A DNA stretch of 64,000 bases from an uncultured bacterium (GTDB lineage: Bacteria > Verrucomicrobiota > Kiritimatiellia > RFP12 > UBA1067): assembly GCA_902801025.1 (NCBI GenBank), contig CADCGZ010000028.1, forward strand, positions 2,264 through 66,263, read 5' to 3'. Position numbers and translations under genes: made by a program. The notes under the pieces were generated by a model. That model worked only from the letters and a program-made list of their open reading frames with translations. It was not told the DNA's origin and did no database searches. Positions 5,521-57,650 of the stretch are shown here, piece after piece (the stretch's first letter is position 1; each line of letters opens with the position of its first letter).

Positions 5521-7623
5521 ATGACGGAAGAGACAAAGGCCGCAACCGACTTCGGCGCCGATGTGTTCGGCGAAGAGGCGATCAACAAGTATTTGAGCAA
5601 GGACACGGCGAAGAAGCTCCAGGCGACGATTCGGGAAGGGAAGCCGCTCGATCCGTCGATCGCGGGCGAAGTCGCACATGGCATCCGCCACTGGGCGATG
5701 GATCGCGGCGCGACGCACTACACGCACTGGTTCCTCCCGATGACCGGCTCCACCGCCGAGAAGCACGACTCGTTCTTGGAACTCAAGGACGGCGAGCCGA
5801 TCATGCAGTTCAGCGGCAAGAACCTGATCGTCGGCGAGCCCGACGCATCGTCTTTCCCGTCTGGCGGCATCCGCTCCACCTTCGAGGCGCGCGGCTACAC
5901 CGCGTGGGATCCGACGTCGCCGGCGTTCATCAAGCGCCACTCGAACGGCGCCACCTTGTGCATCCCGACCGCGTTCTGCGCATACACGGGCGAGTCGCTC
6001 GACAAAAAGACGCCGCTTCTCCGCTCGATGCAGGCGCTCGACAAGTCGCTAAAGCGCCTCATGAAGCTCTTTGGGCGCGCCGAAGGCCATGCCGCGTGCA
6101 CGCTCGGCGCGGAGCAGGAATACTTCCTCATCGACAAGGGATACTGGAAGAAGCGTCCCGACCTCGTGCTTACGGGTCGGACGCTCTTCGGTGCTCCGTC
6201 CGCTAAGGGCCAGCAGCTCGAAGACCACTACTTCGGCACGATTCCAGATCGCGTCATTTCCTTCATGAACGACGTCGAGCGCGAGCTCTGGAAGCTCGGC
6301 ATCCCGGCGAAGACGCGCCACAACGAAGTCGCGCCCGCGCAGTTCGAGCTTGCGCCGCAGTTCGAGGAGCTCAACCTCGCGAGTGACCACAACATGCTCG
6401 TGATGGATACCTTGCGGAACGTCGCCGAAAAGCACGGAATGAAGTGCCTTCTCCACGAGAAGCCCTACGCGGGCGTCAACGGCTCTGGTAAGCACAACAA
6501 CTGGTCCGTCGCCTTCGGCGGCAGGAACCTCCTCGACCCGGGCAACGACCCGCACGAGAACGCCGTGTTCCTCACGATGCTCTGCGCCGTCATCGAGGCG
6601 GTAGACAAGCATGCCGACCTCCTTAGGGCCTCCGTCGCTGGTGCGGGCAACGACCACCGTCTCGGCGCAAACGAAGCGCCGCCCGCTGTCATCTCGATCT
6701 ATGTCGGCGACCAGCTCGCGGAAGTGCTCGACCGCATCGAGAATCCAAAGGGCGCGAAGCACGAGGAAAAGGGCTCCCTCAAGATCGGCGTCGACACGCT
6801 CCCCGCGATTCCGAAGGACGCGACCGACCGCAACCGCACTTCGCCTTTCGCGTTCACCGGCAACAAGTTCGAGTTCCGCGCTCCGGGATCGAGCGTCTGC
6901 TGCTCCGGCCCGATGACGGTCCTCAACACAATCGTCGCCGAGGCGGTAGACAGGATTGCCGCCGAGCTCGACGCCGCCAAGGTCGCCGGAAAGGCGAAGC
7001 CGGGCGAGCACACCGCGGCGTTCCACGTGGCTCTCCAGAAGATACTGCAGGCCTCGCTCAAGACGCACAAGCGCGTCGTGTTCAACGGCAACGGCTATGA
7101 GGCCGACTGGCCGAAGGAAGCCGAGAAGCGCGGTCTTCCCAATGCGCCAGACACGCTCTCCGCCCTGGCCGCGCTTTCGAAGAAGGAGAACGTCTCCCTC
7201 TTCGAGAAGTACGGCGTCATGACGAAGCGCGAGCTCAAGAGCCGCCACGAGATATTCCTCGAGGAATACGCCAACAAGGTGCGCATCGAAGGCAACACGG
7301 CGCTCGACATCGCAAAGACGATGATCCTCCCAGCCGTCCGCGCCGAGTATCTCGAGGTTGCGAAGGCCTACAACGAGACGGATTCCAGCAACGTGAAAAT
7401 CGCAATCGACATGCTTCACGGGCAGATGACGGAACTTGGCAGCGGACTCGTAAAGATGAAGGAGGCGATAGACTACTTGCAGGACGCGCTGAAGAACTAC
7501 GACACTGCGGACACCCTTGCGAGGATGGCCGAGCTCAGGAAGATCGCAGACTCGCTCGAGGCGGTCATCACGAGCGAAAAGTGGCCGCTTCCGAAGTACC
7601 GCGAAATGCTGTTCTTGTATTAG
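5521..7623 (+). CDS. glnN: Glutamine synthetase type III (GlnN)
   Basis: ~700 aa; GSIII N-terminal signature (YTHWFLPMTGSTAEKHDSF) and catalytic-domain motifs. The upstream in-frame extension to 5383 was rejected (implausible Arg-rich leader). Confidence 0.85.
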   Translation: MTEETKAATDFGADVFGEEAINKYLSKDTAKKLQATIREGKPLDPSIAGEVAHGIRHWAMDRGATHYTHWFLPMTGSTAEKHDSFLELKDGEPIMQFSGKNLIVGEPDASSFPSGGIRSTFEARGYTAWDPTSPAFIKRHSNGATLCIPTAFCAYTGESLDKKTPLLRSMQALDKSLKRLMKLFGRAEGHAACTLGAEQEYFLIDKGYWKKRPDLVLTGRTLFGAPSAKGQQLEDHYFGTIPDRVISFMNDVERELWKLGIPAKTRHNEVAPAQFELAPQFEELNLASDHNMLVMDTLRNVAEKHGMKCLLHEKPYAGVNGSGKHNNWSVAFGGRNLLDPGNDPHENAVFLTMLCAVIEAVDKHADLLRASVAGAGNDHRLGANEAPPAVISIYVGDQLAEVLDRIENPKGAKHEEKGSLKIGVDTLPAIPKDATDRNRTSPFAFTGNKFEFRAPGSSVCCSGPMTVLNTIVAEAVDRIAAELDAAKVAGKAKPGEHTAAFHVALQKILQASLKTHKRVVFNGNGYEADWPKEAEKRGLPNAPDTLSALAALSKKENVSLFEKYGVMTKRELKSRHEIFLEEYANKVRIEGNTALDIAKTMILPAVRAEYLEVAKAYNETDSSNVKIAIDMLHGQMTELGSGLVKMKEAIDYLQDALKNYDTADTLARMAELRKIADSLEAVITSEKWPLPKYREMLFLY

Positions 7624-7668
7624 GGGTCAGGGGTTAGGAGTCAGGAGTCAGTGAGTAGTGATTAGTGA
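7622..7668 (+). repeat. Family E tandem heptamer repeat (aggagtc)n at the glnN 3' end / purF leader
   Basis: gtattaggggtcaggggttaggagtcaggagtcagtgagtagtgattagtga. Related copies at 9573-9626 and 57611-57650, each immediately after a stop codon and 20-40 nt before the next start. Confidence 0.7.
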
Positions 7669-7674
7669 TATCAA

Positions 7675-9039
7675 ATGACTGATGAACTAAAGCACGAATG
7701 TGCCGTGGCGATGGTGGTCTTGAGAAAGTCCGCCGTCGCCACCGGCGATTTCGGTGGGACAAAGCTTTCGCTCCTTCTCGAAAAACAGCACAATCGCGGG
7801 CAGGACGGCGCGGGCGCGGCAATACTCTCGGCCAATCCCGAACCTGGCGAGACACCGTACTGGATCGCCAAGTCTGCGTCCGCTACACCGCTCACGGATG
7901 TGCTTGGAATGATCGGGAAGAGAAGCAGTGTTCAGACAGGATTTGAAAGGGTCTTTCTCGGTCATCTTCGCTACGCCACGTTCGGGAAAAACGACGTGGC
8001 GTTCTGTCATCCATTCGTGCACGAGTCGAGCGAACTGAATCATACGCTTCTTCTCGCCGGAAACTTCAACCTCACAAACGCCCACGAGCTTTTCGACGAC
8101 TACCGCCACCGCGGTTCATTCCCGACGAGCAAGTCGGACGGCTATCTCATCTGCGAGATTATTGCACAGGCGCTGAAAAATATTAGCCGTGTAGAACATG
8201 TAGAGCATGTAGAATTAGAACCGAATCTACATGATTCTACATGTTCTGCATGGTCAGAATCTGCTTTGTCACGCGCTATCTCCACGGCATTGAAGAACGC
8301 CGACGGCGCATGGACGCTCTGCGGCATGACCGCAGACGGATGGGCGTTTGCGACGCGCGACCCGCACGGCATCAGGCCTGGCTGGCACTACATCGACGAC
8401 GATGTCGTTGTCGTCGCCTCCGAGCGTGCCGCCATACAGGCGGCGTTCGACGTGCCGCCCGAAGCCGTGAAGGAGCTTCCGCCTGGCGAAGCGCTTGTCG
8501 TCTCGCCGGAAGGGGAAGTCAAGTTTGTTGATTTGAACCGTGCAGAACATGTAGAACGTGTAGAAAGCAATACTTCTGATCTACATGTTTCTACATGTTC
8601 TACACGGCTTGAAAAACCACTTGCCCGTCCCTGCTCTTTCGAGCGCATCTACTTCTCCCGTGCGAACGATGCCGACATCCACCGCGAGCGCAAGGCGCTT
8701 GGCGCGGCACTTGTGCCGCGGATCCTCGAGGCCGCCAATGCGCCGATGGACCGCATCTTCTTCAGCTACATTCCCAACTCCGCGCGCATCGCCTTTCATG
8801 GACTTCTGGAAGATTTGTTCAAGAGATGTGTTTCACCGCAGAGCCGCGTTAATAATATCCCGCGCTTTGGAGAGGTGGCGGTGAAGGACGCGAAGTTCCG
8901 CACGTTCATCGCTGACGCTGCGGCAAGGCGCGAGTTCTACAAGCATGTCTACGACGTGACCTACGGGCTCGTCAAGAAGGACGATACGCTCGTCGTGCTC
9001 GACGATTCGATCGTGCGCTTGGGCCGAAGAGAATCGTGA
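7675..9039 (+). CDS. purF: Amidophosphoribosyltransferase (PurF), N-terminal/major part; ends prematurely at a frameshift/deletion inside the PRPP-binding motif
   Basis: Propeptide plus catalytic Cys (MTDELKHECAV..), RGQDGAG, Fe-S ligand CSFERIYFSRAND, VVLDDSIVR then stop. Contains two in-frame family B repeat insertions (8186-8252, 8538-8608). Confidence 0.7.
   Translation: MTDELKHECAVAMVVLRKSAVATGDFGGTKLSLLLEKQHNRGQDGAGAAILSANPEPGETPYWIAKSASATPLTDVLGMIGKRSSVQTGFERVFLGHLRYATFGKNDVAFCHPFVHESSELNHTLLLAGNFNLTNAHELFDDYRHRGSFPTSKSDGYLICEIIAQALKNISRVEHVEHVELEPNLHDSTCSAWSESALSRAISTALKNADGAWTLCGMTADGWAFATRDPHGIRPGWHYIDDDVVVVASERAAIQAAFDVPPEAVKELPPGEALVVSPEGEVKFVDLNRAEHVERVESNTSDLHVSTCSTRLEKPLARPCSFERIYFSRANDADIHRERKALGAALVPRILEAANAPMDRIFFSYIPNSARIAFHGLLEDLFKRCVSPQSRVNNIPRFGEVAVKDAKFRTFIADAAARREFYKHVYDVTYGLVKKDDTLVVLDDSIVRLGRRES
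8186..8252 (+). repeat. Family B palindromic element (gtagaacatgtagaa / ttctacatgttctac arms), copy 1, in frame inside purF
   Basis: Imperfect 66-bp hairpin; translated as SRVEHVEHVELEPNLHDSTCSAW. Confidence 0.75.
8538..8608 (+). repeat. Family B palindromic element, copy 2, in frame inside purF
   Basis: ccgtgcagaacatgtagaacgtgtagaaag...ctacatgtttctacatgttctacacgg; translated NRAEHVERVESNTSDLHVSTCSTRLEKP. Confidence 0.75.
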
Positions 9040-9572
9040 TCGCCTCTTCCGCGCCACCAATCCGCTACCCAGACTGCTATGGCATCGACATGTCGACGCT
9101 GGGAGAGCTTGTAGCATTCAAGGCGCTTGTAAATTTGCTGGATGGGGAACGGGGAACGTATCCCCCGAGCGAAGCGAGCGCCGAAGGCGGCTCAATGCGG
9201 GGTGGGAACGGGGAACGGGAGTTGCGCGAAGCGCTTGCCGAAATTGAACATCTACACGTTTCTACATGTTCTACACGGTTAAAATCATTAAACCCTCTCG
9301 CATCCCTCTATGCGCGCTTCACTGAAAAGCAACACGCTGCAGAAATTGCCCGACTTCTTACCCCTCCGGGAATGAAGGCCGAAGTCGTTGTGGTCTATCA
9401 GACGATTGAAGACTTGCATAAGTCTCTTGCTCCCGTTCCCGGTTCCCGGTTCCCCGTTCCCCGAATTGGTGACTGGTATTTCACTGGCGACTATCCGACA
9501 CCTGGCGGATACAAGGTGCTGCGAAAGGCGCTTCTGAATTACTTGGATAAGAATTCGGAAAGGTCGTATTAG
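9036..9572 (+). CDS. purF: PurF C-terminal fragment in a different frame (GTG 9036 overlaps the upstream stop); carries three repeat insertions
   Basis: SAPPIRYPDCYGIDM ... GDWYFTGDYPT match the PurF C-terminus. In-frame family A (9144-9221, 9430-9465) and family B half-unit (9250-9278) insertions. Confidence 0.6.
   Translation: MIASSAPPIRYPDCYGIDMSTLGELVAFKALVNLLDGERGTYPPSEASAEGGSMRGGNGERELREALAEIEHLHVSTCSTRLKSLNPLASLYARFTEKQHAAEIARLLTPPGMKAEVVVVYQTIEDLHKSLAPVPGSRFPVPRIGDWYFTGDYPTPGGYKVLRKALLNYLDKNSERSY
9144..9221 (+). repeat. Family A element (ggggaacggggaacg terminal direct repeats flanking a gtatcccccgagcgaagcgagcgccgaaggcgg core), in frame in purF
   Basis: Translated [26 protein letters not shown]. 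The same unit occurs in pyrG (12768-12838) and, reversed and duplicated, in carB (15488-15627). Confidence 0.75.
9250..9278 (+). repeat. Family B half-element (right arm only) in frame in the purF C-terminal fragment
   Basis: atctacacgtttctacatgttctacacgg followed by ttaaaat, as in other copies. Confidence 0.6.
9430..9465 (+). repeat. Family A core oligomer, reverse orientation (cccgttcccggttcccggttccccgttcccc), in frame in purF
   Basis: Translated APVPGSRFPVPRI. Confidence 0.6.
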
Positions 9573-9626
9573 GGGTCAGTAATTAGGAGTCAGGAGTCAG
9601 TAGTCAGGGGTCAGGAGTCAGAGAAA
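9573..9626 (+). repeat. Family E tandem heptamer repeat between purF and carA
   Basis: gtattaggggtcagtaattaggagtcaggagtcagtagtcaggggtcaggagtcagag. Confidence 0.7.
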
Positions 9627-9633
9627 GGAATTT

Positions 9634-10827
9634 ATGAACTATAGTGAAAAGTGGAAGGTGGAACGCGAACGCAAGGCGTATCTCGCACTTGCGGACGGCA
9701 CTGTGTTCCACGGCGTCGCTTTTGGCGCTAAGAAGGACGCGCTTGGCGAAGTCGTCTTCAACACCGGTATGTGCGGCTATCAGGAAATACTAACCGATCC
9801 AAGCTACGCCGGGCAGTTCGTCACGCTTACCCCCGCAGAAGTCGGTAACTACGGCATAAATGCCGAAGACATAGAAAGCCGCAAGTTGTTCTTATCGGGT
9901 CTTGTCATTGGCGATTTGACCGCGCCTAGCAACTGGCGCTCCGAAAAGAGCTTGGACGACTACCTGAAGGAGAACGGCGTACCTGGCATTTATGGCGTCG
10001 ATACGCGCGCTCTAACGTTGCACTTGAGAGATCATGGTAACCAGAAAGCCTTTCTGTACGTTGGGGAACGGGGAATGGGGAACGGGGAACGGGAGGCGGT
10101 TGCCAAGGCGCGTGAATGGGAAGGGCTCGACGGCCAGGACTATGCGGCAAAGGTGACATGCGAGAAGGGGTATGAGTTTAAGACAGGATTAACAGGATTA
10201 ACAAGATTATCTGGGGACATGTCCACAGACCCCAAAAATCCTGTAAATCTTGTAAATCCTGTCAAAAGAATAGTCTGCTACGACTTCGGCGTGAAGACAA
10301 ATATCCTCCGTTCGCTTGCGTCGTGGGCAAAGGTCACCGTCGTTCCCGCGAAGACGCCTGCTGAAGAAGTCCTCAAGATGAAACCTGACGGCGTGTTCCT
10401 CTCAAACGGCCCCGCCGACCCCGCGGCAGTTACCTACGCCATAGAGAACATCAAAAAGTTGTTGGGGCCACTTCCCATAATGGGAATTTGTTTGGGGCAT
10501 CAGTTGCTCTCGCTTGCCTGTGGTGCGAAGACTGGGCGGCTAAAGTTCGGTCACCACGGCTGTAACCATCCAGTGAAGAACCTTGCGACAGGCCATGTGG
10601 AGATAACGAGTCAGAACCACAACTTCGCAGTCTTGCCAGAGACGGTTCCGGATTGCCTTGAAGTCACGCACATAAACCTCAACGACAACTCTATCGAGGG
10701 TGTCAGGCACAAGACGCTTCCCGCGTTCTCGGTGCAGTACCACCCCGAGTCTTGCCCCGGTCCGCACGACTCAAAGTATCTCTTCGACGAATTCAGAAAG
10801 ATGGTATTAGCCGTGCAGAACGTGTAG
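9634..10827 (+). CDS. carA: Carbamoyl-phosphate synthase small (glutamine amidotransferase) subunit, with two in-frame repeat insertions in the inter-domain linker
   Basis: GEVVFNTGMCGYQEILTDPSY, CLGHQLL, GHHGCNHPV, YHPES motifs. Insertions: family A 10063-10095 (GERGMGNGERE) and family D 10183-10264. Confidence 0.9.
   Translation: MNYSEKWKVERERKAYLALADGTVFHGVAFGAKKDALGEVVFNTGMCGYQEILTDPSYAGQFVTLTPAEVGNYGINAEDIESRKLFLSGLVIGDLTAPSNWRSEKSLDDYLKENGVPGIYGVDTRALTLHLRDHGNQKAFLYVGERGMGNGEREAVAKAREWEGLDGQDYAAKVTCEKGYEFKTGLTGLTRLSGDMSTDPKNPVNLVNPVKRIVCYDFGVKTNILRSLASWAKVTVVPAKTPAEEVLKMKPDGVFLSNGPADPAAVTYAIENIKKLLGPLPIMGICLGHQLLSLACGAKTGRLKFGHHGCNHPVKNLATGHVEITSQNHNFAVLPETVPDCLEVTHINLNDNSIEGVRHKTLPAFSVQYHPESCPGPHDSKYLFDEFRKMVLAVQNV
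10063..10095 (+). repeat. Family A oligomer (ggggaacggggaatggggaacggggaacggg) in frame in carA
   Basis: Direct sequence identity to other family A cores. Confidence 0.65.
10183..10264 (+). repeat. Family D 82-bp palindromic element (acaggattaacaggattaacaagatt ... aatcctgtaaatcttgtaaatcctgt) in frame in carA
   Basis: Near-perfect inverted repeat around the ggggacatgtccacagacccc centre; translated KTGLTGLTRLSGDMSTDPKNPVNLVNPV where E. coli CarA has only a short linker. Confidence 0.7.
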
Positions 10828-10925
10828 ATCGTGTAGAAAGGAGAAATTTAACCATGTGGAACATGTAAAACATCCAGTAGAAAGTGAATATGCAAATCTA
10901 CATGTTTCTACATGTTCTACACGGT
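10811..10925 (+). repeat. Family B element, long copy (~115 bp), at the carA stop / carA-pyrG intergenic region
   Basis: ccgtgcagaacgtgtagatcgtgtagaaag....ctacatgtttctacatgttctacacgg; supplies the last codons and stop of carA. May also act as a terminator-like hairpin. Confidence 0.75.
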
Positions 10926-10938
10926 TAAATAAACAGCC

Positions 10939-12872
10939 ATGAAAAAGCAAGTCAAATACGTATTTATCACCGGCGGCGTGGTTAGCTCGCTTGGAAAGGG
11001 CGTCACAAGCGCGTCACTTGCGCTTCTCTTGAAGAGTCGCGGCTACAGGGTCTTCATGCAGAAGCTCGACCCGTATCTCAACGTCGATCCCGGCACGATG
11101 TCGCCCTACCAGCACGGCGAGGTGTTCGTGACAGACGACGGCGCAGAGACAGACCTCGACCTCGGCCACTACGAGCGTTTCGCGGGCGTGACGTGCTCTA
11201 AGGCGTCGAACTACACCTCTGGCCGTATCTACTCAGCCGTCCTCGCGCGCGAACGCGCGGGCGGCTACCTCGGCGGAACGGTGCAGGTCGTGCCGCACAT
11301 CACCGACGAAATCAAGGCGGCGATCAGGAGTGCCGGCGAAGCGCATGGCGACGAGCCCGCGCCAGACATCGTCCTCTGCGAAATAGGCGGAGTATCGGGC
11401 GACATCGAGTCGCTCCCGTTCCTCGAGGCCGCGCGCCAGTTCCGCTTCGAAGAGGGAAATGAGAACACTTGCTTCGTGCACCTGACGCTCGTTCCCTATC
11501 TCAAGGCGGCGGGCGAGCTCAAGACAAAACCGTCGCAGCACTCCGTCGGCATGCTGCGAAACATCGGCATCATCCCTGACATCCTTGTCTGCCGCACCGA
11601 AATGACGATTCCCGAGGAGCACCTCAAGAAGCTCGCCATGTTCTGCAACGTGAAGCGCGAGTGCGTAATCGAGGAAAAGGATGTCGCAGACTCTGTCTAT
11701 GCCGTGCCGCGCGAACTGCGCGAGCAGGGTCTCGACGAGCAGGTCTTGAGGCAGGTGCGTCTCGACCTTTGGCCGATTAAGCACACGGTCTGGGACACGC
11801 TCGTCCGCAAGGCGACGCAGCCGAAGAAGCGCTGCCGTATCGCCCTTGTCGGGAAGTACATCTCGATACGCGACGCCTACAAGTCAGTTCACGAGGCCTT
11901 GCAGCACGCCGGCATGGCAAACGACTGCAAGGTCGAAGTCGTGCCTATCGAAGCGGAAGAAATCTTAACGCAGAGGCGCAGAGGCGCAGAGGCGGGGAAA
12001 GAATCGTCCTCGTCTGCATCTGACGGCCAGCAAGCCGGCAAATCATCAAAATCTCTCTGCGACTCTGCGTCTCTGCGTTTAAAAAATATCGACGGCATTC
12101 TCGTCCCCGGCGGCTTTGGGTCGAGGGGTGTAGAGGGCAAGATCGCCGCGATCAAGTATGCACGCGAGAAGAAGATTCCGTTCCTCGGCATCTGCCTCGG
12201 CATGCAGTGCACTGTCATCGAGTATGCGCGCGATGTCCTCGGCTGGAAAGACGCCAACTCGACGGAGTTCGACGAGAACACCACGCACCCCGTGATCGAC
12301 TTGATGGAAGAGCAGCGCGGCGTCACGCAGAAGGGCGGCACGATGCGCCTCGGCGCTTATCCGTGCGTCCTCGAGAAGGGCTCTCTCGCTGATAAGCTGT
12401 ATAGCCACAAAGAACACAAAGATAACTCTGCGCCTCTCGGCACTCGCTTCGCTCGGCTTGGCTCGCTACAAAACGCGAGCCCCGCTTCCGCGGCGGTTAC
12501 GCGACTCTGCGTTAAAAACAAAGACGCGCCCATTATTTCCGAGCGACATCGCCACCGCTACGAGCTTGCGAATGGCGGCAAAGTGCAGAAGGCGCTGACG
12601 GCCGCAGGGCTCAATGTAAGCGGCACGTCGCCTGACGGAAAACTCGTCGAGATAGTGGAGCTGCCGGGCCACCCCTACTTCATCGCCTCGCAGTTCCACC
12701 CCGAGTTCAAGTCGCGCCCGACAATCCCGCATCCGCTGTTCAACGGCCTTGTAAAAGCCGCGTTGAGGAACGGGAAACGGGGAACGGGTAACGGGGAACG
12801 TATCCCCCGAGCGAAGCGAGTCGCCGAAGGCGATGCCCTAGCAGGGGTGGTAACGGGAAGAGGGAGTGAAGA

Positions 12873-12876: not shown

Positions 12877-16199
<3,323 letters not shown>

Positions 16200-22628: not shown

Positions 22629-23501
22629 ATGAAAATCAAGTTCATCGCCAACATCAAGGGCATATATCTTGGGTATTCGTTTGAACAGTCCGACGTAGTG
22701 ACCATAGGGCGCGAAATCGGAAACACCATAGCGCCCATAAACGTAGATGGCTTTTCGCGCCACCACGCGCGCATCTTCTTCAAGGACGGAGCATGGTATG
22801 TCGAGGACGTAGGCAGCACAAACGGCACCTACCGCAACCGCGTCAAGGTCGAGGCCCCGACAAAGATCGAGAAGGGTGATTCGATAAGGTGCGGGCTCAT
22901 GGAACTTGCTTCGTTTGACTTCGAGGAGTCGGCATCTCCAGCTCCCGTGACGGCAGTCGAACCGCCGAAACCGGTTGCGCCAGTCGCGCCGACGGAGCCG
23001 CCCAAGCCCGCCACGCCAGTGGAGCCGCCTAAGCCGATTGAGCCAGTCAAGCCCGTGGAACCGGTCAAGCCCGTGGAACCGACCAAGCCAGTTGAGCCGG
23101 TCAAGCCGGTTGCCGAACTCGAGCCGGTCGTTCCACTTGAGCCCGTAGCGCCGCTTGAGCCGATTACTCCGCTTGAACCGATCACTCCTCTCGAGCCGAT
23201 TACGCCTCTCGAGCCGATTACGCCTCTTGAGCCAGTCGAGGAACTCAAGCCGGTTTCGCCCACCAAGACGGCGAAGGTCCCCACGCCAGTTGCGCCAGCG
23301 GCTCCTGCGGCTCTCCGCCGTCCGACTATACCAGGGCTTAAGCCCGGGCTAAAGCCAGGTCTCAAGCTTCCGCAAAAGGGCGGTTCGTTGCCAAGCGGTC
23401 TAAAGCTTCCGCCCAAGGGAGGTGCGTTGCCGAGTGGCCTCAAGCTCCCGCCAAAGCCAGGGTTGAAGCCAGGGCTCAAGGTTCCCGGCAAGGGCGCTTG
23501 A
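22629..23501 (+). CDS. FHA-domain protein with a long Pro/Val/Glu/Lys-rich tandem-repeat tail
   Basis: FHA motifs (GR..N.I....VSR.HA.I...DG.W.V.D.GSTNGT..N); then PxEPxKP and ITPLEP repeats and a GLKPGLKLP tail. Confidence 0.75.
22960..23250 (+). repeat. Coding tandem repeats (9- and 15-nt units: ccgattacgcctctcgagccg etc.) within the FHA-protein gene
   Basis: Visible nucleotide-level tandem periodicity; encodes the EPxKPV / ITPLEP arrays. Confidence 0.65.
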
Positions 23502-34810: not shown

Positions 34811-36670
34811 ATGAAAACGATAACAATTCTTGCCGCAGTCATGTCTGTTTCGAGTGTGGCTTCGGCTGGAACGATGCTTACTACCTGGGGAGAGAAGGTT
34901 ACGAGCGAGAACGCCTGGCGTGACTATCCACGCCCTCAGATGGTGCGCCAGAACTGGACCAACCTCAACGGAGAATGGGAGTATGCGGTGACGAGCGTGA
35001 CCAATACGCCCGGACGCCCCGAGCAATGGGACGGGAAGATCCGCGTACCGTTCTGCATCGAGTCTGCGCTTTCCGGCGTCGGGCGGCTTCTGGAACCCGA
35101 CGAGTTCCTTTGGTACACGCGCAAGATATCATGCGACCCGAAACCCGGCGAAAGAATGCTGCTCCACTTCGGCGGCGTAGACTTCCGCACGATGGTGTTC
35201 ATCGGGCATGACGAGGTGACGGATGTTCCGCACGAAGGCGGGCAGAATCCCTTTACGCTCGATATCACGGACTTCGTGAAGAAAGGCGAGAACGAGCTTA
35301 CCGTCTGCGTGTGGGATCCAACCGAGAGATTCATCAACTCCCGAGGCAAGCAGTGCTTCAAGCCCCACGGATGCTTCTACACGCGCGTCTCCGGAATCTG
35401 GCAGACGGTGTGGATGGAGACGGTGCCCGAGAAGTACATCTCCGGCTACAGCGTAGTTGCAGACATCGACAAGGGGGAAGTGACGCTAAGTTTTCGGGGA
35501 ACGGGGAACGGGGAACGGGGAACGGTTGAAATCGAGACCTCTGCGTCTCCGCGCCTCTGCGTTGAAAAGACATTTGCCCCCAACGAGCCGGTTACAGTCA
35601 AGTTGCCCAAGCCAGTTGAATTGTGGTCGCCGGAGAACCCGAAGCTCTACAACTTCACCGCGAAGTACGGCAAGGACGAGATCAAGGGCTACTTCGGCAT
35701 GCGCAAGTTCGAGAAGCGGGCTGACGCGAAGGGGATTCTTCGGTTCTTTCTCAACAACGAGCCATATTACGTGATGGGCACTCTCGACCAGGGATGGTGG
35801 CCGGACGGGCTCTTGACGCCGCCTTCGGAAGAGGCGATGGCGTTCGACATCAAGACCCTCAAGGACTGCGGCTTCAACACCATGCGCAAGCACATCAAGG
35901 TCGAGCCGTTCCGCTACTATGCACTCTGCGACAGGATGGGCCTTCTCGTGATACAGGACCTCCCGAGCGGCAACGGAAACGCGGTCGATCCAATTGGGGT
36001 TGGCGTCGTTCCGCGCTATGGCCTGCAGCGCCAGGAGATGAAAGAGATGATGGACGTCCTCCAGACATTCCCCTCGATCGTGATGTGGAACCCCTACAAC
36101 GAGGGATGGTCGCAGCCAGGCGAATTCCTTACTCATTCCATGCTTGACTTCGTGCGCCGCTACGACCGTACGCGTCTCGTGAACGGTCCAAGCGGGTGGT
36201 GGGACTGGGAAGGCGGGCATCTCCTTCCAAATGGCTGGGACTGGAACAGGCGTGTTCTTACGAATCACAGGCCGGAGGGCGAATGCGAGGCGGCTGACAC
36301 GGTGGATCTCCATCTCTACCGCGGCCCCGACATGCTTGCGGTGAATCCGCGCCGCATAAGTTTCCTTGGCGAGTTCGGCGGGCTCGGACATCCCGTAGAA
36401 GGGCATCTATGGAAGGAGGCCAAGGGCAGCTGGGGATATGGCGGCATTTCGGACACGAAGAATCGCGAAGGTCTTGAAAAGGCATATCTCGGCCTCATGA
36501 AAAAACTCGGCGATCTCGCGGAGAAGGGACTTGGCGGTTCTATCTACACGCAGACGACCGACGTTGAGATCGAGATCAACGGTCTCCTAACATACGACCG
36601 AAAGGTACTGAAGTACAATCCAGAAGTCCTCAAGGCCGCACATGAGGCGGTCATCAGGCGCACAAAATGA
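34811..36670 (+). CDS. Glycoside hydrolase family 2-like (beta-galactosidase/mannosidase/glucuronidase type), secreted, with in-frame family A and family C repeat insertions
   Basis: GH2 sugar-binding N-domain (NLNGEWEY.., LLHFGGVDF...VFIGHDEV) and catalytic TIM region (NEPYY..., MWNPYNEGW). Repeat insertion at 35496-35563 (GTGNGERGTVEIETSASPRLCVEK). Confidence 0.7.
   Translation: MKTITILAAVMSVSSVASAGTMLTTWGEKVTSENAWRDYPRPQMVRQNWTNLNGEWEYAVTSVTNTPGRPEQWDGKIRVPFCIESALSGVGRLLEPDEFLWYTRKISCDPKPGERMLLHFGGVDFRTMVFIGHDEVTDVPHEGGQNPFTLDITDFVKKGENELTVCVWDPTERFINSRGKQCFKPHGCFYTRVSGIWQTVWMETVPEKYISGYSVVADIDKGEVTLSFRGTGNGERGTVEIETSASPRLCVEKTFAPNEPVTVKLPKPVELWSPENPKLYNFTAKYGKDEIKGYFGMRKFEKRADAKGILRFFLNNEPYYVMGTLDQGWWPDGLLTPPSEEAMAFDIKTLKDCGFNTMRKHIKVEPFRYYALCDRMGLLVIQDLPSGNGNAVDPIGVGVVPRYGLQRQEMKEMMDVLQTFPSIVMWNPYNEGWSQPGEFLTHSMLDFVRRYDRTRLVNGPSGWWDWEGGHLLPNGWDWNRRVLTNHRPEGECEAADTVDLHLYRGPDMLAVNPRRISFLGEFGGLGHPVEGHLWKEAKGSWGYGGISDTKNREGLEKAYLGLMKKLGDLAEKGLGGSIYTQTTDVEIEINGLLTYDRKVLKYNPEVLKAAHEAVIRRTK
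35496..35525 (+). repeat. Family A oligomer (ggggaacggggaacggggaacgggg) in frame in the GH2 gene
   Basis: Identical core to the purF/carA/pyrG/carB copies. Confidence 0.65.
35538..35563 (+). repeat. Family C arm (cctctgcgtctccgcgcctctgcgtt) in frame in the GH2 gene, adjacent to the family A unit
   Basis: Matches the ctctgcgtctctgcgtt arm of the pyrG element. Confidence 0.55.
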
Positions 36671-39144: not shown

Positions 39145-42100
39145 ATGAAAAAGATGCTCCTTCCTTTTCTGGCCATTGTGGCCGTATTCTTTTGCTTCGC
39201 CGACGACGGCGAGAATCGTACTTCACCGGACGGGTTGAAGGTCCTGATGATCGGGAACAGCTTCTCGATCAGCTGCACGCGGCAGCTGCCGCTGGTCGCC
39301 GAGGCGAACGGGCACAAGCTCGACCTCGCCTCGCTCTATATCGGCGGATGCTCGCTCGAGCGCCACTGGCGGAACGTCGAGGCCGCCGCGACGAACGCGA
39401 CGTTCAAGCCCTACCGGTTCGACAGGTTTGTGGAAGGGCGGTGCGTCGTCGAGAAGGGTGCGGCGAACATCCCGGACGCGCTCGCGATGGACAAGTGGGA
39501 TGTCGTGACGCTCCAGCAGGCGAGCCACTTCAGCTGGGATCCAGCGACCTACCATCCGTGGGGCGACAATCTTGTCGCGAAGATCCGCGAGCTTGCGCCG
39601 CAGGCGAAGATCGTCGTGCAGGAGACGTGGAGCTATCCTCCGTGGGACAAGCGGCTCAAGAAGTTTGGCTTCGACCAGGTCGAGATGTATGCGCGCCTGC
39701 ACGACGCATACGCCGCCTTCGCGAAGAAGTACGGATTCGGCATAATCCCCGTCGGCACCGCGGCGGAGATATGCGCCGACCGCAACTCGCTCTTCACGAA
39801 GCCAGACTTCCATTTCAACCACGAGGAGGGCGAGTACCTCCAGGCGCTTGTCTGGGACGCTGCTATTTTCGGATTCAAAATCAACCAGTCGTGCGATTAC
39901 AGGCCGGAGGGCATGTCCGAAGCGAGGGCGGACGAACTGATGACGGCGGCAATTCTCGCGAACATTCATCGGCTTGGCGACGGCAAGGCCATGTCCGTCG
40001 ACCGCGCCTTCCGCGACGCGCGTGTGACGCGTGGCAACACCAACATCCTCCGCGTCCAGCCGATAGACGAGGCGTCGTGGGTGTGGCATCCAGGCGTGGG
40101 CGAGCCGAAAGCCGGAACGACTGATTTCTGGGACGGCGAGAGACACGGCAACCTGGTCGACGCGGGCTTGACGATACTCAAGTTCCGTAAGTCGTTCGAT
40201 GTCGCAGACGGCGACGGGACGCTTGTCTTCGATGTCTCGGCCGACGAGAGGTTCGTCCTGTTCCTCGATGGCAAGTTCGTTGCCCGCGGACCGAATCGCG
40301 GAACCGTGGAGAACTGGCAGTACCAGACATATATTGCCACGGACCTTAAGCCGGGGCGCCATATCTTCGAGGCGTATGTCCAACGGCTTGGCGACTTTGC
40401 GCCTCTTGCTCAGCTTTCGTATCGCGGCGGATTTGTCTTCAAGGCGAACGGCGCGTATGACGCTAAGCTGACGACAGGCAAGGCCGATTGGGAGGTAGGG
40501 CTTGTTCCCGGTGTCCGCTCCATTGGCAAGGCCGCTGGCGCGTGGGGCACGGGCTCGCAGTTCGAGATTGTTGGATGTGGGCCTTATTCTGGCGAGCCGA
40601 CGGAATGGAAGAAGTCCGTCATTGTGCGTGGCGCCGCAGGGTCAAAAGGGCCGCGGATCTATGGTGGACGGACGAGCGGCTGGATGCTTTTCCCGTCGCA
40701 GATTCCCGATCAGACTGAATATCCATGTGTCCCAGGGCACGTCAAGGCGGTTGCGAAGGGCGCCGAGTTCCGCAGTCAGCATGTATACACTGAGGACGAG
40801 GCGAAGGAGACGGTTGACCTAACTAAGCCGTTCACCGTTCCCGCGAACACGAAGATGCAGCTCGCATGGGATCTCGGGCGCTACTACTGCGCATATCCAG
40901 ATGTCGTTCTCTCCGGCGGCAAGGGGGCAAAGTTCGCGATCTGCTTCGCTGAGGCATCGCATCGTGGCGACAATCACCTCAAGACAAGCGAGCCGAATGC
41001 ACGCGACTTGATCGTCGGTCGCTATCTTCCCGCGTTCGGCGATACGTTTGTGAGCGACGGACGGAAGGACGCAAAGTTTTCCGCGCCGTGGTTCCGCTGC
41101 GGAAAGTGGGTTCGCATCGACATCGAGACGAAGGACGAGCCGCTGACGGTCGACGCCGTAGGGCTCGTCGAAAGCCGCTATCCCGTCGAGATGGAGAGCG
41201 TCTTTTCGTCGCCCGACGATCCGTCGCTCGGCGCCATACGCGACATATCGGCGCGCGCGATGCAGATGTGCTGCCACGAAATGCTTTTCGACTGCCCGTT
41301 CTACGAACAGCAGATGTATCCGGGCGACACGCGCGTCCAGCTGAACGTCCTTTCGGCGATGTCGCGCGACGACCGCATCGTCAAGCGCGCGATCGAGATA
41401 TACGACCTCAATACGCGCGACGACGGGCAGTGTCCGTTCAACTTCCCGACGCGCGGTACGCAGGAGGGCGCGAGCTACACGCTTTGCTATCTTCTTATGT
41501 ACGGCGACTACGTGATGAACCATGCCGACCGCGAATGGCTGAGGGCGCGTCTCCCTGGCTTAAGGAAGTCGATGGCGGGAATGGAATACTACGAGAACAA
41601 GGACGGCCTTCTCGAGGATATCCCCGGGTGGAACTTCATGGACTGGGTCGTTGGCTGGGATGGCGACGGAACCGCGCCCGGCTGCCGGTTCGGCGACGGC
41701 GTGAACGCGGAACTCAATCTCTATTGGAACCTTGCGATGCGTTCCGCTGCCGCAGTTGAGCGCGCGCTTGGCAACGAGTTGCAGGCGAAATACTGGGAAG
41801 AGAAGTCGGACAAGCTCAAGCAGGCGGTTGTCAAGACGTTCTGGGACGAGAAGCGCGGCATTTTCGCCGACACGCCTGCGAAGAAGGATTTCTCGGAACA
41901 CGCTCAGGCGCTTGCGCTTCTTGGCGACGTCCTCCCTGCGGGCAAGGCCGAGACGACGTTCCGGCATCTCGTCGATGACAAGGACCTCAAGCGCTGCACC
42001 GTGTATTTCTCTTACTACCTCTTCGAGACATATTTCAAGTTCGGGCGCGGCGACCTTTTCTTGAAGCGCCTCGACCTCTGGCGCGACTACGTCAAGAAGG

Positions 42101-47013: not shown

Positions 47014-47487
47014 ATGTCTATTCTCATCGGTTTTCTCTATGTAGTCGAAGTCCTGGTCTGCATCCTTCTGGCGATGGTCGTTATGCTCCAGAAGCCGAAA
47101 GAGGGCGGCCTTGGCGGTGCGTTCGGCGGCGGCATGCTCGAGGCGTCTCTCGGTGCCGATGCGGGCAACGTCCTGATCCGCACGACGGCGATCCTCGGCG
47201 CGATTTTCCTTCTTAACACGCTCGTTCTCGCGCGTCTTACCTCGACCGTCCACTCCCGCAGCCTGATGGCGCGCGAGGCGGAGCCTGCGGCCGAGACCGC
47301 GCCCGCGCTTCCCGCGGCTCCCGAGCTTCCTGCGGTTCCCGAAGTGCCCGCTGCTGCGCCCCAGGCGCCTGCAGCACCCGCGCCCGCTGCCCCTGCAGCT
47401 GCTCCCGCGCCCGCTCCTGCGGCGCCGGCTCCTGCTGCCCCTGCGGCGCCGGCTCCTGCGGCTCCTGCCGCGCCTGAAGCTAAGTGA
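47014..47487 (+). CDS. secG: Preprotein translocase subunit SecG with a low-complexity Ala/Pro-rich C-terminal tail
   Basis: Two TM helices and the LGGAFGGG glycine-rich SecG motif; tail of (A/P) repeats encoded by tandem DNA repeats at 47290-47470. Confidence 0.8.
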   Translation: MSILIGFLYVVEVLVCILLAMVVMLQKPKEGGLGGAFGGGMLEASLGADAGNVLIRTTAILGAIFLLNTLVLARLTSTVHSRSLMAREAEPAAETAPALPAAPELPAVPEVPAAAPQAPAAPAPAAPAAAPAPAPAAPAPAAPAAPAPAAPAAPEAK

Positions 47488-57610: not shown

Positions 57611-57650
57611 TGTCAGGGGTCAGTGCATAGGAGTCAGGAGTCAGTTGTAA
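57611..57650 (+). repeat. Family E tandem repeat after the FHA-MoxR gene / before the DUF58 gene
   Basis: gtcaggggtcagtgcataggagtcaggagtcagttgtaag. Confidence 0.65.

Follow-up and report, generated by a model that had tools for sequence, protein, structure and literature searches.

How can a short DNA repeat enter the coding sequences of essential enzymes and persist there? This question is raised by Family A, a repeat family in a 64,000-nucleotide (nt) stretch of DNA, hereafter the window, from an uncultured RFP12/UBA1067 Kiritimatiellia bacterium (assembly GCA_902801025.1, contig CADCGZ010000028.1, positions 2,264-66,263 of the forward strand). Family A is dispersed in frame inside purF, carA, pyrG, carB and a GH2 gene. 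With moderate confidence, we regard it as a selfish repeat in two tiers: runs of the heptamer GGGGAAC, and a mobile core that is tolerated in coding regions and is of the type formed by REP elements and REP-associated tyrosine transposases (RAYTs). The evidence comes from the anatomy and fold of the core, its presence and absence at orthologous sites, its exact insertion point, its range within one clade, its location within genes and its occurrence at the ends of RAYT-like genes. Below, L-numbers denote compared loci and P-numbers denote proteins.

Family A in the window

With up to two mismatches allowed, GGGGAACGGGGAACG was matched 19 times in the window, whereas 0.25 matches were expected from shuffles. 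The matches lie at 9144/9203, 9434-9462 (minus strand), 10063-10091, 12765-12800, 15545-15625 (minus strand) and 35496-35524, and a further weak match at 40829 is probably due to chance. All places listed by the sequence-only reading, an earlier annotation made from the letters of the window, were therefore recovered, in both orientations. That reading described the unit as a pentamer dimer, but Tandem Repeats Finder gave a period of 7 at each run, so that the repeat unit is the heptamer GGGGAAC. The conserved 5' 20-mer of the core, TATCCCCCGAGCGAAGCGAG, occurs four times in the window (9159, 12801 and, on the minus strand, 15544 and 15603) with 0.01 expected. A 33-nt part of the core is exact at 9158-9190 (plus) and 15513-15545 (minus), and all 47 nt are identical between the purF copy at 9158 (plus) and the carB copy at 15545 (minus). 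The core of about 45 base pairs (bp) described in opposite orientations is thus present. The described identity between orientations holds for these two copies, which are of subtype v1; the window also has differing cores of subtypes v2, at 15604 (minus), and v3, at 12800. Family A is two nested things: GGGGAAC runs that lie within coding sequence in either orientation, and a core placed inside the runs.

In purF, a left run of two GGGGAAC units (9144..9157, plus) is followed by a v1 core of 47 nt (9158..9204, plus) and by the right part of the interrupted run, GGAAC GGGGAAC GGGAG (9205..9221, plus). A second purF run, of four units and coreless, lies at 9432..9462 (minus). It has seven units in L086 and L089, and this difference of three units (21 nt) is as expected if the runs are translated. 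In carA there is a coreless run of four units plus GGGAG (33 nt; 10063..10095, plus). The 3' end of pyrG carries a left run of five units (12765..12799, plus), a v3 core of 50 nt that is read as part of a PyrG C-terminal extension (12800..12849, plus), and degenerate right units, GTAACGGGAAGAGGGAG, ahead of the stop codon (12850..12866, plus); L078 is arranged alike. The carB block is antisense to its gene and holds two tandem cores. Read on the minus strand, it consists of a left run of three units (15605..15625), a v2 core of 47 nt with a GCAA-loop hairpin (15558..15604), separating heptamer units (15546..15557), a v1 core with the same sequence as 9158-9204 (15499..15545) and a right partial heptamer, GTAACGGGAG (15489..15498). 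The whole block, 15489-15625, corresponds to an extra loop of about 34 amino acids (aa) relative to residues 874-885 of Escherichia coli CarB. Finally, the GH2 gene has a coreless run of four exact units (35496..35525, plus) between its GH2_N and GH2 Pfam domains. CarB and CarA were identified by alignment with E. coli carbamoyl phosphate synthetase, PyrG and the GH2 protein by Pfam matches and PurF by its homologues; the PyrG extension was seen in translation.

All copies listed by the sequence-only reading carry heptamers, but those at 9430-9465, 10063-10095 and 35496-35525 are runs without a core, and the pyrG copy, given as 12768-12838, extends further, to about 12866. The GGGGAAC flanks had been taken for the termini of the element. 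They are instead independent runs, which are also present without a core at the same orthologous sites and into which the core is a secondary insertion. Runs have one to about ten units, most often two or four. Their length varies by entire units, and most persisting changes involve a multiple of three.

Anatomy and fold of the core

The core has the layout GTAT-CCCC-[CGAGC GAA GCGAG]-[variable hairpin]-GGGG-TG and is 47 or 50 nt long. Among 96 occurrences examined, three main subtypes were found: v3 (50 nt) 24 times, v1 (47 nt) 16 times and v2 (47 nt) 15 times. They share the 5' end GTATCCCCCGAGCGAAGCGAG, an invariance that is partly a product of the search pattern, and the 3' end GGGGTG, and differ in the hairpin between. 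The stems of this variable hairpin compensate: TCGCC/GGCGA, CGCC/GGCG, CCGC/GCGG, TCCGC/GCGGA, CTGC/GCAG, CTCC/GGAG and CCC/GGG were all found. A profile search and a covariance model also recovered the variants CAGGC-GAA-GCCTG and GAAC-GAA-GTGAG, the loops GGA and GCA, and cores that begin with A. These variants show that CGAGC-GAA-GCGAG folds into a hairpin of its own, in which two G.A pairs are in tandem.

The 113 matches of the covariance model comprise 46 distinct core sequences. Pairing in these amounts to 97.5% for the variable hairpin, where three base pairs have changes in both partners, and to 96.7% for the C4/G4 closing stem. Covariation scored 0.18 compared with 0.045 in shuffles, none of 500 of which reached 0.18, and controls with slid partners stayed at or below 0.028; the alignment was fitted to the covariance model and so leans towards the proposed structure. 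The first hairpin has tandem G.A pairs in 41-42 of the 46 sequences and canonical pairs in the remainder. Loops are mostly GNA or GCAA, with few exceptions (GAG, AAA, CAA and GTCA). A DNA mini-hairpin of very high stability, which requires GNA triloops to form, has the motifs GCGNAGC and GCGNNAGC (PMC13037366). GCGAAGC and GCGCAAGC of the core fit these two motifs. The core fold is two GNA-loop mini-hairpins closed by the C4/G4 stem, and covariation supports it. In L001 (1596-1687 and 1754-1848), cores are split by another small element, and nesting thus also occurs inside the core itself.

Filled and empty sites

L086 is a close relative of the window, and the two differ mostly by repeat indels. 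At the purF site, L086 reads GGGAAAC GGGGAAT G|GGGAAC GGGGAAC GGGAG, and the window has 45 additional bases (TATCC...GGGGT) at the bar. Relative to L086 and L089, both of which have an uninterrupted run without a core at this site, the net insertion in the window is 9159-9203. At the first carA site, L088 has a v1 core, the window has only the run and L090 lacks the run; the second site has a reversed core in L086 and the run without a core in L089. In these three independent pairs of filled and empty sites, the alleles are exactly 45 nt apart at the DNA level, at the same phase of the heptamer. Several clusters of CarA proteins also differ by 15 aa, which matches an insertion of 45 nt. The sequence-only reading had proposed a comparison with related genomes to look for empty sites and target-site duplications. 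Empty sites were found, but no bases are duplicated.

The insertion point is AAC-G^G-GGAAC, one fixed phase of the run. The junction AACG|...|GGGA was found in 54 of the 64 heptamer-flanked copies of an independent metagenome set, in which the core is only 47 or 50 nt long, giving a net addition of 45 or 48 nt. To the left of the core, the adjoining unit invariably has C as its last base (G in GGGAAG-type runs), although GGGGAAT units are common in runs. In L079 (RUG14528) the purF site holds a core of subtype v3, which follows one heptamer unit, not two, and is read in another frame. Most PurF relatives have at this site only the run (LLDGERGMGNGERELREAL), and some lack the run (LLGDGANDLLHEAL). 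The simplest reading of the window and L079 would be that two cores inserted independently into an older run.

Cores are not confined to GGGGAAC runs. They also occur within GGGAAGA-type runs and in the loops of other hairpin repeats, which are intergenic. A double-hairpin repeat, GGTAGGG...CCCTACC, exists with and without the core, which then lies between the two G's of CTC-GG-AGAG (GGA loop). A further carrier is an A/T-flanked hairpin downstream of 5S rRNA. The target common to all carriers is S-G^G-R. In L029 (7290-7500), L049 (1-330), L076 and L077, the A/T-flanked hairpins are in tandem and adjoin an apparent 5S rRNA gene, with a core in each loop. The heptamer runs themselves could have arisen by insertion, by expansion in situ or as footprints of excised elements.

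Range and genomic location

The core was counted in an exact-match scan with one genome per species. This gave 85 stretches in at least 28 species-level assemblies, nearly all of them labelled Kiritimatiellae or rumen "RUG" bins; two short core-bearing contigs were binned elsewhere. The core was also found on more than 120 metagenome stretches, and no copy was found in viral contigs. The census suggested by the sequence-only reading thus shows a family dispersed over at least 28 assemblies, nearly all of gut or rumen Kiritimatiellae. Searches of the literature for the element sequences and for Kiritimatiellae repeats returned nothing relevant.

Location was scored against open reading frames (ORFs) of at least 250 aa. 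Heptamer-flanked cores lie inside such ORFs in 53 of 61 cases in the first set and in 59 of 64 in the metagenome set. The corresponding counts for cores without heptamer flanks are 19 of 52 and 13 of 26, and 34 of 37 coreless heptamer runs lie inside long ORFs. Since bacterial genomes are generally about 90% coding, these counts give no sign that the heptamer-borne form avoids genes. Of the copies in coding sequence, 27 are sense and 16 antisense to the host gene.

CarA illustrates what accumulates in one protein. Its orthologues, which are 76-100% identical, range from 369 to 466 aa and have four insertion hot spots, each occupied by different repeat families in different lineages. In genomes with 85-91% identity, unrelated repeat families occupy one loop (10179-10270 in the window, 1545-1628 in L086). 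The window and L090 have a 9-mer palindrome there, L086 and L089 reversed Family A, and L088 a further family. Repeat turnover in this loop is seemingly faster than point divergence and is mosaic among lineages. The searchable literature yielded no account of such a situation.

Reading frames and translation

The sequence-only reading had suggested that the element is constrained to be free of stop codons in several frames. A six-frame comparison with dinucleotide shuffles does not support this. Open frames numbered 5 of 6 in v1 (shuffle mean 4.55), 4 of 6 in v2 (3.82) and 4 of 6 in v3 (3.88), and shuffles were equally or more open with P = 0.57-0.71. In the heptamer a stop codon is impossible, as one strand of GGGGAAC is free of T and the other of A. 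Frame use is non-random: sense v3 copies use one frame 13 times and another 3 times, and sense v1 copies use one frame 5 times and another twice. This bias looks like filtering of tolerable peptides after insertion, not like a stop constraint, and the uneven frames read as selection after insertion against arginine-rich peptides. Preservation of the frame suggests that the inserts are translated as an extra loop. An AlphaFold2 model of CarA from a 44-sequence alignment had a mean pLDDT of 40.9 and was unusable for placing the inserts on the surface.

A candidate transposase

When an approximate RAYT query was used in tblastn, weak matches adjoining cores were obtained in L109 and L095. An earlier tblastn search of genome loci with approximate RAYT/IS200 queries gave only a spurious match in L074, with stops and no HUH motif. 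The ORF in L109 (about 1744-2643) matches Pfam Y1_Tnp with 31.8 bits (cut-off 23). The protein of L109 and L216 contains the HUH motif NHVHV and a Tyr region, and its nearest NCBIfam model is REP_Tyr_transpos, the REP-associated tyrosine transposase (E = 2e-13, 50 bits). Homologues, which JGI names RayT, are found in Lentisphaeria and Verrucomicrobia.

Cores lie at the ends of these genes. In L109, L216 and L095 the core is inside the 3' end of the RAYT-like gene (P0241 and close relatives; the L109 protein is 87% identical to P0241). In L214 it lies 30 nt after the start of the gene (P0242, 78% identical), and in L215 a reversed core lies at the 5' end (P0245, 50% identical). Each has its own hairpin variant and none is heptamer-flanked. 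The association is seen in three lineages of the gene. The chance that cores would be at the gene end in three of the five nearest homologue clusters is about 0.003, as a rough figure that assumes one core per 15 kb and has no correction for ascertainment. The link between Family A and RAYT is associative only.

RAYT-like genes were also seen in other settings. Those in L211 (2501-3349) and L212 (2501-3340), whose products share 49-51% identity with the L109 protein, are placed between the hsdS and hsdR genes of type I restriction-modification operons, and the L212 gene holds the REP-like sequence GTAACGACGGCGCCCTCGCCGTCGTG twice. The RAYT-like proteins P0251, P0253 and P0256 are apparently circular permutations, in which the C-terminal motif precedes the N-terminal one, and abound in segments encoded by repeats. 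Between the paired cores of L047 and L058, where an autonomous element was sought, only ordinary genes were found.

How the core may move

In the two-tier interpretation, (GGGGAAC)n runs would form the first tier, occupying permissive loops and linkers of proteins and changing in length unit by unit. The second tier would be a REP-like single-stranded DNA module with a (G/A)TAT tag and, inside a C4/G4 closing stem, two GNA-loop mini-hairpins, the first invariant (CGAGC-GAA-GCGAG) and the second with a free stem sequence. This module would be copied into S-G^G-R, between its G's and without duplicating the target, either at the fixed phase of the heptamer or in the GGA loop of other hairpin repeats, and would add 45 or 48 nt each time. 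Mobilisation is likely due to a RAYT-like HUH Y1 transposase, which would act in trans and use single-stranded DNA as its substrate. The core would be tolerated in coding regions because its length is a multiple of three, most frames are free of stops, and the peptides are rich in Gly, Pro, Ser and Arg and are loop-like. Host genes would thereby stay functional, with the insert translated as an extra loop.

The main alternative is that there is no dedicated enzyme and that the core spreads by ectopic gene conversion or by template switching during replication between heptamer runs. We consider this possible but rather doubtful. Runs would offer 14-30 bp of homology on each side, and the stable mini-hairpins would promote stalling and switching of polymerases. 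Insertion is always in the register of the heptamer and without target duplication, identical cores across diverged genomes suggest concerted evolution, and the states of the element form a mosaic among relatives. What enzyme-free copying does not account for is the core at the same G^G point in unrelated carriers that have no heptamer homology, and its presence in GGGAAGA-type runs as well. The left unit that always ends in C or G, in spite of common GGGGAAT units, points to recognition of a site. The cores at RAYT-like genes of three lineages also argue against this alternative.

Several observations weigh against an enzyme of the RAYT type, or against the two-tier interpretation as a whole, and some of them favour enzyme-free copying. 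In two of the three filled and empty pairs the flanking heptamer units differ as well (AAT to AAC), which is what co-conversion from a donor run would produce. The alleles without a run (the purF site of L088 and the first carA site of L090) differ by replacement and not by clean insertion. Orientation of the core relative to local GC skew, a noisy proxy for the replication strand, is 28:28 and thus unbiased, whereas single-strand transposition of the IS200/IS605 type would predict a bias. The REP_Tyr_transpos score of 50 bits is below the curated cut-off of 80. Only one core, and no flanking pair, lies near each RAYT-like gene, on contigs that are short, and these genes are so riddled with other repeats that the core could be one more passenger. 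The more distant homologues in L211-L213 have no Family A core, L212 having a different REP, and the window contains no RAYT-like gene. Finally, the translation of the inserts is an inference from frame preservation.

The inserts might instead be selected protein modules, that is, flexible linkers or loops that function in the host enzymes. This is very unlikely. Frame use is non-random, arginine-rich frames are avoided and the inserts lie in linkers and variable loops, as such modules would. However, copies of one core are read in several frames and in either direction, yielding unrelated peptides, and the DNA is conserved far more strongly than the peptide. Presence and absence vary among relatives with 85-91% nucleotide identity, and one loop can hold unrelated repeat families in different lineages.

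A marginally smaller chance is given to a structured RNA with a function in mRNAs, for instance in regulation, stabilisation or processing or as a ribozyme motif. Covariation supports the fold, and the three one-sided changes in the variable hairpin are all compatible with G.U pairs on the modelled strand. Against an RNA, copies are both sense and antisense to host genes that are unrelated to each other, and the loop rule (GNA triloops, GCGNAGC) is that of DNA mini-hairpins (PMC13037366). Rfam 15 gave no match at gathering thresholds in the window, and a permissive scan of 9100-9260 gave only chance-level matches (E of about 1 or above). An artefact of assembling or binning repetitive metagenome data, suggested by chimeric ORFs that join unrelated genes across the core (P0002 and P0003) and by the shortness of many element-bearing contigs, is almost certainly not the explanation, since assemblies made independently in different studies agree on the insert and on its orthologous site (window and L078; L032 and L044; L022 and L059), copies are found in contigs of up to 266 kb, and the reading frame is kept through the inserts. 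The functional RNA, functional peptide and artefact explanations are each contradicted by several results.

Comparison with known repeats

A REP unit is a short (20-40 bp) imperfect palindrome that can form a stem-loop and is extragenic, and a RAYT gene is flanked by its own REPs, which its product binds and cleaves as single-stranded DNA. Studies of REP and RAYT include Nunvar 2010 and Ton-Hoang 2012. REP and REPIN elements with RAYTs have been described (PMC3116915, PMC3733652), and one end of the REP palindrome bears a tag, GTAG (or CGTC), that is conserved (PMC3733652). Family A resembles them in being a short hairpin-forming repeat with a conserved 5' tetranucleotide tag beside the stem, many copies per genome and no target duplication. 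Single cores, and no flanking pairs, were also seen at the ends of Y1 HUH transposase genes with a Y1_Tnp match, for which REP_Tyr_transpos is the nearest NCBIfam model. It differs in several respects. Its tag, at the same position, is GTAT (ATAT in variants) and not GTAG or CGTC, which also counts against a REP/RAYT assignment. Its core has 47-50 nt, with two mini-hairpins in a closing stem and not one palindrome. Family A is mostly intragenic and in frame, only the copies without heptamer flanks being mostly intergenic, and it prefers a heptamer run as its landing site. Unlike in REPINs, no inverted doublets were seen; carB holds a direct tandem pair. We therefore class Family A with REP/RAYT systems by the way it works, without treating its membership as proven.

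IS200/IS605 elements use a Y1 HUH enzyme, have hairpins near both ends and insert seamlessly at a short specific target. The seamless 45-nt insertion at G^G, preceded by C or G and with nothing duplicated, is similar. Unlike these elements, Family A has no detected strand bias, its target is only S-G^G-R, its candidate enzyme groups with RAYTs, and at about 47 nt it is far smaller than known derivatives.

Rickettsia palindromic elements (RPEs) are 100-150 bp long and occur in coding and non-coding DNA of an alphaproteobacterial endosymbiont. Ogata et al. 2000 reportedly described them as selfish palindromic repeats that are in frame in housekeeping genes and are translated as extra surface segments, and we know of no transposase for them. 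RPEs are among the elements listed in a review of miniature inverted-repeat transposable elements (PMC10969869). Family A is likewise a dispersed palindromic repeat that is inserted in frame in protein genes and has coding and non-coding copies. However, its core is 47-50 nt, it has a tandem heptamer carrier and it belongs to metagenome-assembled genomes of Kiritimatiellae, where many families coexist and replace one another in the same loops.

Elhai et al. 2008, a paper cited in PMC3116915, are said to have described cyanobacterial STRR heptamers with nested SDRs of 21-27 nt, the mobility of which was reportedly deduced from filled and empty sites in related genomes. These too are very small hairpin-like mobile repeats nested in tandem heptanucleotide runs and in other repeats; phylum and sequences are different, and SDRs are not known to be mainly coding or to be linked to RAYTs. 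G-rich GGGNATC heptamers in Xanthomonas and Nostoc are dispersed through the genome, favour four units, form G-quadruplexes in vitro and are depleted in coding DNA (PMC4692102). GGGGAAC runs share with them the G-tract heptamer and the four-unit mode, and (GGGGAAC)4 fits, as a sequence pattern only, the G4N3 quadruplex pattern. Their location is different, as almost all coreless GGGGAAC runs lie inside long ORFs.

REP elements are defined as extragenic, and selfish repeats in frame within genes are known mainly from Rickettsia. Family A has a candidate transposase, a DNA fold that can be predicted and a precisely defined insertion point, and close relatives supply clean filled and empty sites. 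With these four properties, the entry of selfish repeats into essential genes and their persistence there become directly testable. It is tempting to propose, tentatively, that Family A is the first REP/RAYT-type system located mainly inside protein genes. A RAYT-like enzyme would insert a codon-neutral core, a double mini-hairpin adding 45 or 48 nt, at a fixed phase of GGGGAAC runs. Together with other short repeats in these loops, the family would then outpace point substitution in remodelling the surface loops that essential enzymes have in gut Kiritimatiellae. If an intragenic, RAYT-driven system of this kind exists, protein loops would have a mechanism of turnover that operates across the clade. 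In metagenomic data from rumen and gut, such repeats break assemblies, create chimeric ORFs and inflate protein length, as in CarA. They also cause domain models to miss, so that the PurF halves and the RAYT-like genes score weakly.

Interrupted genes and other repeats

In the window, purF is split near 9010-9040 into ORFs at 7675-9039 and 9036-9572. The cause is a shift of the frame: 43 nt present in L086 are deleted, with the loss of GNTMKNAILPMLDR behind DDSIVR; PurF of L079 retains this segment, and purF is intact in L088-L090 (620-643 aa). The split is either a real pseudogene or an assembly error. At the first carA site of L086 (1424-1470), two extra heptamer units (+14 nt) break the frame, so that carA is called as 988-1524 and 1545-2306; this may be a real frameshift or an assembly error. 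P0002 and P0003 start as other proteins and continue as PurF after the core peptide, and the flank of P0002 is as in L022 and L059. These two proteins are probably assembly chimeras joined at the repeat.

Other repeat families also lie in frame in purF, carA, pyrG and carB. They typically have about three tandem 8-10-mers, a spacer and about three inverted copies, and are found in the window at 8190-8252, 8539-8604, 9251-9277, 10183-10262, 10812-10921, 11969-12078, 14185-14262 and 14480-14539. Tandem AGGAGTC heptamers at 7622-7656, 9585-9621 and 57629-57644 contain a Shine-Dalgarno-like AGGAG; the first two lie just upstream of the purF ATG at 7675 and the carA ATG at 9634, respectively. The spacer between purF and carA contains other repeats in L086 than in the window. 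Longer tandem repeats, with periods of 18, 36 and 63 nt, lie at 23011-23456 and 47302-47476.

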